Part shown: piece by piece, positions 24,736 through 28,932 of the stretch
Position numbering within the stretch: position 1 is the stretch's first letter
Layout: each line of letters opens with the position of its first letter
NCBI GenBank assembly: GCA_045539995.1
Contig: JAZQGJ010000063.1
Location: 1-55,483, forward strand
Direction: 5' to 3'
Source: Eubacteriales bacterium
GTDB taxonomy: Bacteria; Bacillota; Clostridia; Oscillospirales; CAG-272
Length of the DNA: 55,483 bases
Made by a program: the position numbers and the translations under genes
Notes under the pieces: model-generated
What the model was told of the DNA's origin: nothing
Seen by the model: the letters and a program-made list of their open reading frames with translations, nothing else
Databases searched by the model: none

Positions 24736-26359
24736 TACCTGACACCTCCTAAACGATGCAATGATATTTATATATTTTATTTACATCATAAATTGACGAA
24801 TGATATTATAACACATATTTTCAATAAATGCAAGAGGTATTTTTATTTTTTAGCAAAAAAAATGAAAAAGTTACCTACTTTTTTCTGAAAAAAACTGTAC
24901 AAAGCGCCGAAAGTACCTTAAAGGACTCTTTGTGTGTCATAGCTTGTTTGTTTTTTTACAGCTTCTTGGCGGTATTTCTTGAACTCAGGATATCGTTTAT
25001 CGTATTCTTCCAATATCGCTTGGCTTTCTTCCGCCGTGAGCGCTATCCTCTCGCCGTTGACATCCTTTGCCAATACCGACTTGTTCGCCTCTGGAACGAA
25101 TTCGTCAATCGTCTTTTTTAGCTTTTTTGTCGCCTTATTCAGCGCATTGTGTTCCGCCTTTAATGACTTTAACTTTTCACGTATACGTGTTGCTTCAATT
25201 CTCGAATCTACATTATCAGCGTCCTTAAGCTTCTCAAGCAGAGCGTTATTGACGTCGATATCTCGCTTTAGCTTACCAATGTCATTCTCGATTTCCTTCA
25301 GCTTTTGCTTGTTTTGCTCGTTTCTCTCGATAGACCTCTTTTCGAGCGACATACGGTCTATGTTGTGCGCGTGGTAACAAGAAGCGTAAAACGCTCGCTC
25401 GTAGTCCTTGCCCTTTGCCTTTATCGGTTGAAGAATTTTACCTAAACCGTCGCCCTCGTTTACGATTTTCCCGTTGCGAATAGTAAAACGCTCGCCGCCG
25501 ATCATTTCCTGAGCCTGAGCTCTCGATGCCCGCACATTGTTCGTCCACTTTTCGATATCCTTTACGCCCATTTTTTTGCCCGCGTATTCGATACCCGCTT
25601 GTTGATTAGTAAACTGTATCTGTGTAGCAATAACGGCAGGTATTACACCGTTCTTCATCGCAGTAGCGCCATCTACTATCGTTTCCTTTGCGGTTTTCTT
25701 CGTGACAGTATGCACCATTCCCGAAGCAGAGTCGAAATCGAGTGATAAAACAGAGTCTAAATTAGAATAATCTTCAAAATTACGCGTTTCTTTTATTTTA
25801 TTGTTAGTTAAGCGTGACTTAAACTGCTCGTGTATTTTTGATAATTCATTAATATAAGCATCAAAATCATAGAAGGCGTCCTTTATCCAATTAAAGTCAA
25901 AATTAGGATTGTCAAAAATCTGTCCGTTTTCAAAACCATAAACGACCGCATTTAATTCATCGTAGAAACGAATGACCTGTTCGTCGCTCATATTAAAAAC
26001 ATCAACATTTATGTGATTTGAAATGAGGGCGAAAAGTTTATCGCATTCTTTTGAACTCATGTTTAACATATCAATCGTATGAGAGATAAACTCTAGATAT
26101 GGTTTAAATCTTTGTTGCTTCATTACATGAGTTGTTTCGTGTGCTACAACTGTACGGAGAGTGTCTTTGTCAATATTCTCAGAAATGTATATTTTTCCAA
26201 AACCGGCACAGGCTGGATTTTTTCTATTCCAAGCAGATTTTTTAACAACATAGCATTCTACACCATAAAGATTTTTAATGGTATTTTGAGCTTTATACAA
26301 TTCCGACGATTCGTCAGGAACTATATAATTATTTTCATTATAAAGCCATTCTGTATTCT

Positions 26360-26524
26360 TTAATCCTCTATGCTGTCGTTCAGCAGAGCTATTTTCTCGA
26401 ACTCCGCCTTGTGCTTCTCCCATTCTTTTTTGTATTCGGGATCTGTTGCTATTCTCTCTTGATTTCTCTTTATAGCTTCCATTATTTGCTGACTTTGTTC
26501 TTCCTTGATCAGCTTCTTCTCCAT
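26360..26524 (-). CDS. Nested +1-frame small ORF C, 54 aa (MEKKLIKEEQSQQIMEAIKRNQERIATDPEYKKEWEKHKAEFEKIALLNDSIED)
   Basis: RBS AAGGAAGTG (26539-26531) before ATG 26524; helical charged sequence; host frame here is an R/G/S/N-rich linker. Confidence 0.55.
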   Translation of the reverse strand: MEKKLIKEEQSQQIMEAIKRNQERIATDPEYKKEWEKHKAEFEKIALLNDSIED

Positions 26525-26584
26525 TTTTATCACTTCCTTTGTTATGATTATGCACGTCTCCGTCCTCGTCCGACAGGGCGTATC

Positions 26585-26812
26585 TTACATTTGTTTCTCC
26601 ATTTTCTCCAAGTGCTTGAGAATGTCCGCTTCCGTATTCTTCGGATCCTCGATTATCTTGATCAGCTCCTCGGCTCTCTTGTCCGCTGCTTCTCCTCCGT
26701 ACTTCTTGCTGATACTGCTCAAATGATTTAGTATCTTCTCTACGGTATTCTTTTGCGAAACCTTCTTGTTCAAAGTACGGCAAATAAGAATCCGACCACG
26801 TCCCTCTTTCAT
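26585..26812 (-). CDS. Nested +1-frame small ORF B, 75 aa (MKEGRGRILICRTLNKKVSQKNTVEKILNHLSS...DILKHLEKMEKQM)
   Basis: RBS GAGGAGG (26825-26819), 6 nt before ATG 26812; amphipathic helices; host frame is low complexity over the 3' part. Confidence 0.55.
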   Translation of the reverse strand: MKEGRGRILICRTLNKKVSQKNTVEKILNHLSSISKKYGGEAADKRAEELIKIIEDPKNTEADILKHLEKMEKQM

Positions 26813-27107
26813 AAATAGCCTCCTCATATATTTCCATTTCTACTTCCGTTTGGGCATCAAATCTTACAACTCTCGAAATCTTAAAGTTGTTTTTAGTGCC
26901 TTTAACGAAAACAAATACATTATTTACGCCAAGCTTAGTATGTGGCTCATTGTTTACCTTGATGATAGCCTCGCCTTTCGATGACCTCTTAAAAGTGCGA
27001 AGCGTATACCGCGCCTGTATCTTAGAATATAAATCGTCAAGCTCGTTTTTCGATAAAGCATTAGCCTCTCTCGCCCAGCCGAATTGTTCATACTGTCCTT
27101 TAGTGTA

Positions 27108-27136
27108 ATTATATCCCTTATCGCCGTTGTTGTCAT
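27108..27136 (-). promoter_or_regulatory. Intragenic sigma70-type promoter within the polyvalent gene
   Basis: ATGACA(27136-27131)-17 bp-TATAAT(27113-27108), encoded by NDNNGDKGYN just after the RYALSD linker. Confidence 0.5.
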
Positions 27137-27856
27137 TGGAAGAGTCAGACAAAGCATAGCGGATATTGCCATCATCACGCCAAAACATATTATCTATCGC
27201 CGTAGCAAAACGTTCACTTTTAGCTTTTATAAGGCTAATCGTATGCTTTTTTTCGTTGAACTGCCCTTTTACTACAAGGTTTTTATAACTTTCGTTCCTT
27301 GCATTATCAGAAATCACAAAAATATCAGCATAAGCATTTCCGGCATTTAAAAGTGCCGTCATTCTATGCCGCCCCTCGTGAGATATAACCTCTCCGTTTT
27401 TTACGTCTACTTTCAGATACATGTATTCGCCAGAAGTGTTCTTAATGTTTTCTACAGGAACGGTTTGAGAAATTTTGCTTGATGCGGAGTAAATTTGTCT
27501 TTGGACTACATTGCTCTCGGTTGTCATATCTAAAAACTGTTGTATCGGAATTCTCGTTATATATGCATCTGGGAACAAACTAAGAAATTTATCTCTTCTT
27601 TCCTCGGAAATATGGGCGATTTTATTCTCATCAACATTGCGTTCTATCGGTTTAATTGTGTCAAGAATGTCTACAAAACTTGTCTCGGTTGTGTTTTCGG
27701 GTATAAACAGATTATTATCATCAACAATAAATTCGTTTGCTTCATCAGAACGCATTTTTAAAAAAAACAAATTGATATCTTCTTTTTTTGCATGCCAAAC
27801 AAGAATATCCTGCGTTTCTGTTCTTGGTCTCTGATAAATATCTTCAGCGAGGGAAT

Positions 27857-28027
27857 TTATTTTTTCTTTGTCTTTTTGCTTTGTAAGGACTTCAGATATG
27901 CGTCGTGTTCTTCCGTGGACATCGGAAAAGGAAATACTTCGCCATCTATTATCGTTCCCCAGCAGTGCCTCTTTATCTGATCCTCTGCTGTAGAGGTTTT
28001 TATTTCCGTTTGTTTCTTCTCTACCAT
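27857..28027 (-). CDS. Nested +1-frame small ORF A, 56 aa (MVEKKQTEIKTSTAEDQIKRHCWGTIIDGEVFPFPMSTEEHDAYLKSLQSKKTKKK)
   Basis: RBS AAGGAG (28039-28034), 6 nt before ATG 28027; dedicated promoter about 40 bp upstream. Confidence 0.6.
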   Translation of the reverse strand: MVEKKQTEIKTSTAEDQIKRHCWGTIIDGEVFPFPMSTEEHDAYLKSLQSKKTKKK

Positions 28028-28064
28028 CATTTGCTCCTTTTTTAGTGGTGTTTCTATTTGTTTC

Positions 28065-28093
28065 ATTATACCATTTTTCGCCCTTTTCGTCAA
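28065..28093 (-). promoter_or_regulatory. Intragenic near-consensus sigma70 promoter
   Basis: TTGACG(28093-28088)-17 bp-TATAAT(28070-28065) with extended TGn, encoded by IDEKGEKWYN. Confidence 0.7.
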
Positions 28094-28932
28094 TACTGAA
28101 AGCATTTTTTCTCGCCTCAGTTACGTCAGAGGTTTCCCGATACGCCTTTTCGAAATTATGTTTTACCCTTTCAAGCGCTCTTAATTCTTTGCTACCTGCT
28201 GTGGCAATCTTACACAAATACTTAATTTCGTCAAAAATCTTTTGGAACACGTTTCTGTGATTTGCAGCCAAATTTAAGACAAAATTATAGTCATTGAAAA
28301 GGTAGTCGCCTACTAAATCTGACGTAAGCTCTTCTAAAATAGCCTCGTCGGTTGTTTCAATACCCTTGTATCTTTCTTTTAAAGCGTTAAGCCTTGTTTG
28401 ATACTCTTTTTTTGTTTTCGCATACTCAAATATTGCATCCTGTAGCTTCTTGTAGTGTTCTGTTCCCTCTAAGCTATGCGTTACTTCGTGTCCGACAATA
28501 GTATTTAAAGCTCTTTCTGAATTGAGGTTTAAAGTAATGCCATTGTTAGTAATGTTACCGTCAACAGTAATTTTTCCGCTTTGGACTTTTGTTAACTTTT
28601 CGCTTAAGTTCTTTAATTCCTGACTCTGCGCTTCTGTGCGCTGAGGAGTAGGGATATTAGCAAGCTGTTCGATTCTATCACTCAACTGTTTTTCTACAGT
28701 TGCCTTTAATGTTTCATTATCTGCAAAATCAAATACTAAGCCTTTATCAGCAGAAGCTTTTACAGCTAAGTCAAACAAATCTCGTGTACGATTAGTATTA
28801 TTCAGTCCCGCTTTGCGAGCATTTTCAATTGTCTTGTTTACCGCATCTTGATTTTTCGAGCCTTGATATTTGGTATCATCAATTTCAAGTGATTGTCCTA
28901 CTCTCGCTTCGTCTTTGAGCTACCGTTTTTAC

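Follow-up and report, generated by a model that had tools for sequence, protein, structure and literature searches.

Whether a very large bacterial gene can carry further genes within its own coding sequence, on the same strand and in another reading frame, is the question raised by contig JAZQGJ010000063.1 of assembly GCA_045539995.1 (Eubacteriales bacterium; Oscillospirales; CAG-272), of which a stretch of 55,483 nucleotides (nt) was analyzed (hereinafter, the window). The minus strand of the window contains a long open frame, the host frame, for a polyvalent-type modular protein, and an original prediction, made from the letters of the DNA, held that three small open reading frames (ORFs) in its +1 register, each with a Shine-Dalgarno (SD) sequence of its own, encode partners of the modules in which they are nested. 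To judge from its conservation among homologous loci, one of these, ORF B, is a widely conserved gene-within-a-gene with its own start signals, and we consider it very probably a real translated gene. The host frame, the three ORFs and their start signals are the following.

Host frame: 28919..24918, minus strand, open frame of a polyvalent-type modular protein, about 1333 codons from stop to stop
ORF A: ATG at 28027, stop ends at 27857, minus strand, +1 frame, 56 amino acids (aa), motif EVFPFPMSTEEHDAYLKSL
Shine-Dalgarno sequence of ORF A: 28039-28034, minus strand, AAGGAG, 6 nt before the ATG at 28027
ORF B: ATG at 26812, stop ends at 26585, minus strand, +1 frame, 75 aa, predicted four-helix bundle of a large unnamed family
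Shine-Dalgarno sequence of ORF B: 26825-26819, minus strand, GAGGAGG, 6 nt before the ATG at 26812
ORF C: ATG at 26524, stop ends at 26360, minus strand, +1 frame, 54 aa, motif TDPEYKKEWEK...IALLND
Shine-Dalgarno-like string of ORF C: 26539-26531, minus strand, AAGGAAGTG, 6 nt before the ATG at 26524

All three +1 ORFs were found on the host strand at the predicted positions, and an SD string does stand 6 nt before each of the three ATGs. The +1 register of the host frame contains 80 stops and four open stretches of 74-87 codons, compared with 147 stops in the +2 register. As a chance control, we used 1000 synonymous-codon shuffles of the host ORF in which the host protein was kept. The number of +1 ORFs that start with ATG and span at least 50 aa is close to that expected from these shuffles (4 observed vs 3.07 expected, P=0.33), whereas the combination of such an ORF with an SD scoring at least 5/6 is not this frequent by chance (3 observed vs 0.62 expected; 5 of the 1000 shuffles reach 3, P=0.005). 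Openness of the +1 register as stand-alone evidence was therefore rejected on the basis of the shuffle controls; the start signals are evidence. The fourth open stretch (27193-26954, minus strand, 79 codons) lacks an SD and was discarded, as both its translation and the related stretches in the loci L005 and L007 read like a shadow cast by the conserved host motif QYNxFGWAR.

Conservation of ORF B and selection on its frame

Homologous loci were fetched with an alignment (A1) of the host module that carries ORF B, which consists of host residues 540-806 (267 aa) and nine relatives; species genomes contributed 41 of the loci, viral contigs 4 and metagenomes another 4. A +1 ORF of 60-92 aa that begins with ATG and starts no more than 200 nt after the same conserved host strand is present in 46 of 48 rows; the two exceptions are L014, where the contig ends at this place, and L026, where the match ends early, and L045 and L053, which fell below the tblastn threshold, stand outside this count. 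Thirty-five rows, among them the window itself and three duplicates (two exact copies of L046 and one copy of L051), cover the ORF B site, and in all of them the +1 register is open for 72-92 codons, with an ATG inside the first 0-17 codons of the open stretch. Removal of the three duplicates leaves 32 sequences (alignment A3). Strings such as AAGGAGG, GGGAGG, GTGAGGA or TAAGGAG precede the nested ATGs, and an SD scoring at least 5/6 is found at 16 of the 32 nested starts (50%) vs 4.0% of the 1110 other +1-frame ATGs of the same host ORFs.

The host frame is likewise open over the overlap in 32 of 32 loci; when codons were resampled such that the +1 protein was kept, the host frame stayed open in about 1% of the cases (mean 0.010). 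Both frames are, on the evidence of these alignments, maintained at ORF B. Given that the loci had been picked via the host frame, an unbiased check was made with the peptide profile alone. Among 151 related genomes, all seven matches other than the query's own are nested at the same relative offset, within larger frames of 131 to more than 1061 codons. Thus, an ORF that lies inside a longer one, with both kept open beyond expectation, was found for ORF B in 46 of 48 loci and in all seven loci detected by the profile. Other attempts to extend the set yielded little: single-sequence scans of viral contigs gave 0 and 4 loci, the metagenome scan gave 4, class-level searches with the host modules, each over about 400 genomes, added 2 matches and 1 match other than the query's own, and neither module 2 nor the ORF B peptide had a match in the phage and plasmid collections. 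The ORF B-type nested peptides occur in a long form and a shorter related form. In L069, L070 and L071, which belong to the genus of the window, the module with its nested ORF is found in host frames of 303-545 codons only, and the cassette is therefore not confined to giant proteins.

To determine which of the two frames is under stronger selection, we compared the fractions of mismatched bases at the three codon positions among the 32 sequences.

Overlap, host-guided alignment, host frame counted: position 1, 0.606; position 2, 0.521; position 3, 0.512
Upstream non-overlapped part, host-guided alignment, host frame counted: position 1, 0.444; position 2, 0.350; position 3, 0.622
Overlap, +1-guided alignment, +1 frame counted: position 1, 0.527; position 2, 0.453; position 3, 0.615

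Within the overlap, the host frame shows the reverse of the pattern of a normal gene, and the +1 frame shows the normal one. Over the overlapping segment, pairs of sequences are on average 28% identical in the +1 frame vs 23% in the host frame, and the replacements seen in the +1 alignment are conservative. The same direction is apparent among seven close sequences (68 ungapped codons), in which changes that are silent in the +1 frame and replacing in the host frame occur at 1.69 times their share of the possible changes, and those that are silent in the host frame and replacing in the +1 frame at 0.81 times the expectation. The host-frame linker is kept among close relatives; in distant ones it gives way to unrelated hydrophilic sequence while the +1 frame keeps a clear pattern. 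Purifying selection on the nested frame was detected for ORF B, and the trend is the same for ORF C (n=5) and ORF A (n=2), samples that provide little power. The stronger selection on the +1 frame than on the host frame that had been anticipated is thus seen both in the codon-position mismatches and in the substitution classes.

Searches with the ORF B profile show that the peptide belongs to a large protein family, with 325 matches at E<=1e-3 and 93 at E<=1e-10 among 1.84 billion representative proteins. Most of the 150 matches listed are 66-80 aa long and align end to end; many of the short matches may themselves be nested ORFs that were called on short contigs. The domain also forms tandem in-frame arrays of 2, 3 or 4 copies (P0121, P0122, P0125), and in P0190 it stands behind leucine-rich repeats (LRR_4, E 5.5e-10), a fusion which indicates that elsewhere the ORF B domain is read in the canonical frame. 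Two further proteins join the frames in other ways: P0192 starts as an ORF B-type peptide and continues into host-frame linker sequence, and P0140 is a +1-frame reading with a long upstream extension; these could be natural frameshift variants or sequencing errors. The conservation of ORF B, the maintenance of both frames, the selection on the +1 frame, the start signals, the fold described below and the family membership are all direct results of computation.

ORF C, ORF A and the embedded promoter-like sites

ORF C lies in the leader of the next module, which contains an HExxH motif, and starts 60 nt after the stop of ORF B. No promoter-like site was found between the ORF B stop and the ORF C start, and the two ORFs may be co-transcribed. 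Few relatives cover the leader of the HExxH module; in all four DNA homologues that were fetched (L059, L063, L064 and L065; 35-42% host identity), a +1 ORF of 49-60 aa ends just before the HExxH module and is preceded, 7-8 nt before its ATG, by GAGAGGT, GGAGGTG, AGGAGG or AGGAGGT. At sites where the host frame varies, the +1 motif persists (TDPEYKK(E/L)WEK, TDPVYREKWEK, TDEKYRKK), and the mismatch fractions at positions 1-3 are 0.539, 0.449 and 0.632 in the +1-guided alignment, compared with 0.614, 0.519 and 0.585 for the host positions of the host-guided alignment (n=5 in both).

The protein collection contains 12 relatives of ORF C of 49-66 aa, mostly on contigs shorter than 2.1 kilobases, and the peptide profile yielded four non-own matches in 401 genomes. 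ORF C-type peptides lie in the +1 register of larger frames in L080 (715 codons) and L081 (at least 1036 codons), and in L080 an HExxH module is also found downstream; they are not nested in L079 (a 182-codon frame) and in L082, which encodes a protein of 118 aa with a Cys-rich tail. On viral contigs the peptide profile gave no confirmed match, and a search of the 41 genomes of known loci for module 3 gave one. A resemblance of the host-frame C-terminus of P0002 to the ORF C peptide of the window received no support from BLAST. ORF C is probably a real translated gene.

For ORF A, the comparison involves one DNA homologue, L067 (50% host identity), which contains the same +1 ORF with the same end. 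An AAGGAG is located 6 nt before the nested ATG of L067, the same spacing as in the window, and a TTGCAA-17-TATAAT site ends 19 nt before this ATG. The two loci are 43% identical in the +1 frame, compared with 29% in the host frame; the ORF A core EVFPF.M.TE..D.Y.KSL is intact in L067. Two database proteins are related to ORF A: P0283, which is nearly the L067 peptide, and P0284, which is 76% identical to the peptide of the window. Two more candidates were rejected, namely L077, which has only GEVFPFPM in common with ORF A, and L084, which is a primase-type zinc finger; the remaining peptide-profile matches are spurious. On these comparisons, we lean towards ORF A being a real translated gene, with less assurance than for ORF C.

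The conservation of the +1 ORF, its ATG and its SD among DNA homologues thus amounts to 46 of 48 loci for ORF B, 4 of 4 for ORF C and 1 of 1 for ORF A, and both stand-alone relatives, for which the original prediction suggested looking, and fused ones exist for ORF B and ORF C. The prediction had named homologue conservation, frame-specific selection, shuffled codons and homology searches as its computational checks; all of these came out in its favor, and none of the outcomes that it had listed as speaking against it occurred.

The window also contains two sigma70-like sites that, as had been pointed out, are spelled by host codons.

P1: 28093-28065, minus strand, TTGACG-17-TATAAT with TG before the -10 (extended -10), spelled by host codons IDEKGEKWYN, 11/12
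P2: 27136-27108, minus strand, ATGACA-17-TATAAT, spelled by host codons NDNNGDKGYN at the start of the ORF B host module, 11/12

P1 and P2 are the best two promoter-like sites of the region, and synonymous shuffles would be expected to produce 0.20 sites scoring at least 11/12 in the window (2 observed, P(>=2)=0.013). The -10 of P1 ends 38 nt before the ATG of ORF A. The homologues were scanned over the 450 nt upstream of the nested ATG in 32 loci. The best sites upstream of the ORF B ATG score 12/12 in 16 loci, 11/12 in 8 and 10/12 in 5, and 3 of the 32 lack a site of at least 10/12; in 27 of the 32, a site of at least 10/12 lies 253-304 nt before the nested ATG. The hexamers of the homologues are spelled by the host motif [ILV]-D-x-Y-T-E-[EK]-Q-Y-N at the module start, 21 nt downstream of the P2 of the window. 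This spelling requires xTT, GAC, TAT and AAT codons, the usage of which is 0.34-0.48, 0.40, 0.64 and 0.56, respectively, and in the complete host ORF sequence of these loci (100,881 nt) only 30 sites score at least 11/12, of which 24 are the module-start sites. Thus, among the ORF B homologues the module-start promoter is kept at the DNA level through synonymous choices. In the window, QYE replaces QYN, so that the usual -10 of the family is gone, and a new TATAAT, written by the GYN codons 21 nt upstream, stands at a suitable spacing from ATGACA; P2 looks like a compensatory relocation of the embedded promoter. Judged from its protein, P0002 has the same GYN...QYE arrangement. The hexamers coincide with conserved host residues, which implies that their conservation is partly at the protein level, and five loci lack a site at the 253-304 nt position; for these reasons we grade the embedded ORF B promoter as likely functional.

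The three ORFs are not the only ones of their kind. In 69 host frames of at least 500 codons from the fetched loci (75,023 codons), we found 197 nested ATG-ORFs of at least 45 aa in the +1 register, 46 of them with a good SD, and 9 in the +2 register. Clustering separates the +1 ORFs into shadows of the host sequence with poor SDs and protein-like families with good SDs; the latter comprise the ORF B family (35 loci), its shorter relative (12 loci) and several small families. The shorter family (MRLKGxEYxxRLxxFSxST...SELTEEQVVxQL; for example, L006:4295-4492 and L012:2799-3005) is found at the corresponding position of a variant host module, with an SD of at least 5/6 in 9 of its 12 loci. Another +1 family encodes peptides of 84-101 aa (L063:2447-2749, L065:2196-2462, L066:2706-2957), with a good SD in 2 of 3 cases and, for one member, a weak match to TnpV (PF14198) at E 5e-4, below the cut-off. 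A third, MTQYQKGILVMDYLQ..., of 60-63 aa (L017:1170-1355, L021, L041), has an SD of 5/6 in all three cases and no Pfam match.

The ORF B protein, its host module and the rival readings

AlphaFold2 modeling of the ORF B peptide with the 32-sequence alignment A3 gave four helices with a mean predicted local distance difference test score (pLDDT) of 85.5 and a predicted template modeling score (pTM) of 0.70, so that the anticipated compact helical product is borne out for ORF B by a confident four-helix bundle. A Foldseek search with this model found no match (best E 3.9 in the PDB and 1.4 in BFVD), and a protein atlas search gave no usable match. A saposin-like fold (SapB) was considered and dropped: saposin C aligns over 28 residues only (E ~2e-4), SapB_1 reaches E 0.059, the family alignment contains no conserved cysteines, and no saposin is among the Foldseek matches.

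Modeling of the host module on A1 distinguishes two parts.

Folded alpha/beta domain of the host module: 27119-26682, minus strand, host residues ~554-699, AlphaFold2
Host-frame disordered linker, including the RYALSD module boundary: 26681-26472, minus strand, host residues ~700-769

The former corresponds to residues 15-160 of the 267-residue module, with a block pLDDT of mostly 82-93, and the latter to residues 161-230, with a pLDDT of 31-44; the linker shares its DNA with the 3' portion of ORF B and with the 5' portion of ORF C. ORF B itself spans module residues 117-192. The idea that the nested ORFs sit on junk-like linkers holds in part: the later portion of ORF B does share DNA with the linker, but its first ~44 codons share DNA with folded elements, namely the last helices and strand of the host domain, and the linker is conserved in close homologues. 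The host module belongs to no Pfam family (its alignment was searched) and has no PDB fold match (Foldseek best E 1.3). Four marginal PDB profile matches, all to one family, hinted at a PabI-type restriction enzyme; with E values of 0.4-0.6, they are not significant, and the assignment was rejected.

A complex of module residues 15-162 with the ORF B protein was modeled with a score of 0.82 vs 0.14 for the best of three controls. In calibration, 58 of 80 solved complexes reached this mark, as did 2 of 110 mismatched pairs, although the model was built from custom unpaired alignments, a type of input outside that calibration, and conveys model confidence only. The runs agree in at least 97% of the contacts, the pLDDT of the partner is at least 90, and the modeled interface is formed by residues 104-135 of the host module and residues 2-43 of the peptide; a nearly invariant Arg, residue 7 of the peptide, is one of the modeled contact residues or adjoins them. 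The suggestion that each small protein partners its module thus gains ground for ORF B, and, going by the model, the balance tips slightly towards the ORF B protein binding its host module.

We propose that the ORF B cassette would consist of a host-frame module of ~200 aa with a near-consensus sigma70 promoter written in its first codons; some 250-300 nt further on, an SD and an ATG would open the +1 gene of ~75 aa, with its stop at the module boundary. RNA polymerase would begin inside the giant gene at the embedded promoter, ribosomes would start at the internal SD and ATG independently of translation of the giant frame, and the four-helix protein would bind the C-terminal helices of the very domain with which it shares codons, acting as a module-specific partner, most likely of the inhibitor/immunity type or the chaperone type. 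ORF C, which begins 60 nt past ORF B in the leader of the following module, and ORF A, with its promoter 38 nt upstream, would be organized in the same way, each encoding a different small protein with no relation to the others. What we infer here is that transcription starts at the internal promoters, that the nested ORFs are translated, that binding takes place in cells and what the biological role would be. The combined statement that the nested genes are real and that the mechanism is one of partner binding seems to us reasonably probable; an immunity or inhibition role for the ORF B protein in particular is put forward tentatively.

Several considerations weigh against this proposal. Openness of the +1 register is expected from the amino-acid composition of the host and is by itself no evidence; the selection of loci by host homology partly builds in the openness of the host frame, and the related loci are not independent, so that the P-like numbers are overstated. 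The case for ORF A comes from one DNA homologue and 53 codons. P2 lies ~290 nt upstream of ORF B rather than adjacent to it, the hexamers fall on the conserved host residues [ILV]-D and Y-N, and 5 of the 32 loci lack the site. Pfam, PHROGs, NCBIfam and PADLOC contain no family for the three peptides or their family members, and no family, fold or literature supplies a function for the nested peptides. The complex model carries the restriction given above. The host gene of the window has lost its 5' half and may itself be a relic. The sole signal from RNA libraries is a 264-nt gut metatranscriptome contig that matches 26417-26675 at ~97%, a segment with the end of ORF B and the greater part of ORF C; neither start nor strand can be read from it and DNA carry-over is possible, so that it is a weak hint at most. 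The sequencing runs were available as contigs and hence reveal no starts or strands, and parts that they leave uncovered carry no meaning; the strain differences listed from them are very few in ORF A.

The strongest alternative is that the nested genes are real but encode independent accessory proteins of the mobile element, such as regulators, anti-defence proteins or transfer chaperones, rather than partners of the carrier module, with the tolerant linker DNA and the internal promoters serving them only as a compact site for encoding and early expression. Such independence would fit with the lack of a functional family or fold for any of the three peptides, with the occurrence of ORF B- and ORF C-type domains outside host modules (the tandem arrays, the leucine-rich repeat fusion and the 118-aa protein with the Cys-rich tail) and with the other protein-like nested +1 families, including the one with the weak TnpV match (E 5e-4, below the cut-off). 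However, in all 46 evaluable loci the ORF B family accompanies one and the same host module, the score of the complex model stands clear of its controls (0.82 vs 0.14), and in 5 of the 6 nested cases outside the window a homologue of the same HExxH module follows the ORF C-type ORF; we regard this alternative as rather improbable, yet it deserves to be kept in mind.

A compositional accident, whereby purine-rich stretches encoding hydrophilic linkers leave the +1 register open and produce SD-like strings, with the helical look of the products coming from K and E, accounts for part of what is seen. The host segment at the ORF B site contains few codons with T in the second position, and shuffles that keep the host protein give an expected open +1 stretch with a mean of 27-114 codons at this site (p 0.02-0.83, 35 loci); the 3.07 ORFs of at least 50 aa expected in the window, the excess of +1 over +2 nested ATG-ORFs across the related genes (197 vs 9), with many obvious shadows among the former, and the single DNA homologue of ORF A point the same way. 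What an accident leaves unexplained is that substitutions in ORF B track the +1 frame, that its ATG and SD are kept through differing host residues, that its family includes in-frame multi-domain proteins and has a confident fold, that shadow clusters in the same genes score poorly for SD, and that the ORF C motif TDPEYKKxWEK is kept where the host frame is not; we find this explanation highly improbable.

Programmed frameshifting from the host frame into the +1 frame would produce truncated isoforms that end in a helical domain, with the SD-like string as the stimulator. The ORFs do lie on the same strand in the +1 register, SD-like elements are known stimulators of +1 shifts, as in prfB, and the architectures of P0140, with its long upstream extension in +1, and P0192, with the +1 peptide joined to the host frame downstream, are of the kind that shifting would yield. 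Nevertheless, a +1 stop is located 0-17 codons, mostly 1-7, upstream of the ATG in all 35 loci, which leaves almost no room for a shift; the ATG itself, for which frameshifting has no need, is present in all 35; the SD spacing is that of initiation; and the family proteins of 66-80 aa begin at that Met. With its own ATG, the nearby +1 stop and the initiation-type spacing, ORF B does not have the features of a frameshift product, and we give frameshifting very little credence. Finally, a conserved DNA or RNA element (an internal promoter with its leader, or an RNA structure) in place of a +1 protein would account for a consensus promoter conserved inside coding sequence but not for the three-base periodicity in the +1 register over ~75 codons, the conservative +1 replacements, the confident fold and the protein-level homologues in other architectures, and can be dismissed as barely credible.

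The host gene, related systems and biological meaning

The first start codon of the host frame is a TTG at 28778, from which a protein of 1286 aa would be made. The protein collection contains 202 relatives of the host protein at E<=1e-3. The homologues of the host gene are multi-module proteins of 744-2235 aa, and separate parts of the query align to different places in different proteins, which shows that modules are shuffled among the relatives. The domains detected in the scanned homologues include LPD3, LPD23, LPD38, PBECR3, PBECR5, ART-PolyVal, MuF_C and a putative metallopeptidase; the host protein of the window itself has no Pfam match that reaches the cut-off. Homology to P0002 (94% identical, from P0002 residue 547) extends past the first start up to the in-frame stop (region 28779-28922), which indicates that the host gene has lost ~545 N-terminal residues along with its native start. 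The gene stands alone between typA and rpmB, amid housekeeping genes, with der, obg, the AI-2E transporter gene, the DUF6873 gene and rpmB on one flank and typA, ftsZ, murG and ftsW on the opposite one. The 55,483-nt window shows no phage or conjugative genes; some of the homologous loci are IMG/VR viral contigs. The assignment to the polyvalent proteins was therefore right, going by the domains of the homologues, and the large multi-domain polypeptide with shuffled modules agrees with it; the proposed phage setting was not recovered for the window, in which a 5'-truncated copy lies outside any recognizable phage, prophage or conjugative element.

The class was described as the polyvalent proteins of phages and conjugative elements by Iyer, Burroughs, Anand, de Souza and Aravind in 2017 (PMC5512222). 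So far as the searched passages of that article go, the gene of the window resembles the class in the multi-module homologues with LPD and effector domains and in the module shuffling, and differs from it in having no Pfam match, in its 5' truncation and in its location amid housekeeping genes. The same passages of the main text contain neither 'overlap' nor 'frameshift' and do not describe second-frame genes, and a full-text literature search for polyvalent proteins together with overlapping, embedded or out-of-frame genes returned nothing relevant.

The nearest known arrangements, by analogy, appear to be Rz/Rz1 of phage lambda and comS in srfAB. The two products of Rz/Rz1 form a complex. 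As described in the parts of the sources used here (PMC5295617, PMC6139136), the likeness to these spanins consists in a same-strand +1 gene that lies wholly inside a larger one and has its own start. The spanins are, on the same partial basis, membrane lysis proteins of phages with Gram-negative hosts, whereas in the present case the host is a soluble effector-type modular protein, the products are soluble and helical, there are several unrelated nested families and an embedded promoter, and binding is modeled only. The out-of-frame comS is a single lineage-restricted regulator that is co-transcribed with srfA. It is not known to bind the overlapped domain and, to our knowledge, does not recur from module to module and lacks a dedicated promoter within the coding sequence. 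Like the nested ORFs, comS of Bacillus subtilis is a small gene that is embedded in a very large modular gene and missed by gene calling, according to the consulted part of PMC12915044.

Toxin-immunity cassettes and type II toxin-antitoxin systems are similar in that a variable effector module travels with a small cognate binder, and the tandem arrays of the ORF B type (P0121, P0122, P0125) resemble the poly-immunity proteins of polymorphic toxin systems; in those systems, however, the immunity gene follows the toxin gene, whereas here the small gene of the putative pair lies inside the large one, in another frame. Overprinted genes of small viruses of the phiX174 type share the production of two proteins from one DNA and the asymmetric constraint on the frames, insofar as they are covered in the consulted part of PMC8227390. 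Those genes evolve under extreme limits on genome size, by the same partial account, whereas here the genomes are large, cellular or mobile, with no obvious limit, and the overlap lies partly on a disordered linker of the older frame.

It is conceivable, though speculative, that polyvalent genes of gut Clostridia are disguised operons, in which many modules carry an embedded consensus promoter and a +1 gene for a cognate inhibitor- or immunity-like binding partner; the contact surfaces of the ORF B pair would come from the same nucleotides read in two frames, such that effector, antidote and expression signals would recombine as one indivisible in-frame unit, and the truncated chromosomal copy in the window would be an 'orphan immunity' relic that possibly still expresses its nested genes from the internal promoters.

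Provided that the nested genes are expressed, gene callers, which do not allow a gene within another gene of the same strand, have overlooked an entire class of small proteins in mobile elements of gut bacteria; 325 profile matches belong to the ORF B family by itself. The phenomenon involves several families rather than one, with at least one further well-populated +1 family (12 loci) in addition to smaller protein-like ones. The arrangement would make promoter, effector module and partner inseparable under recombination, and it would provide a natural test case for two folded proteins that share codons, given that ~44 codons of ORF B lie on a folded host segment and the modeled interface falls in the shared DNA. 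The way in which cells deal with polyvalent proteins ahead of their delivery may also find an explanation in this arrangement.

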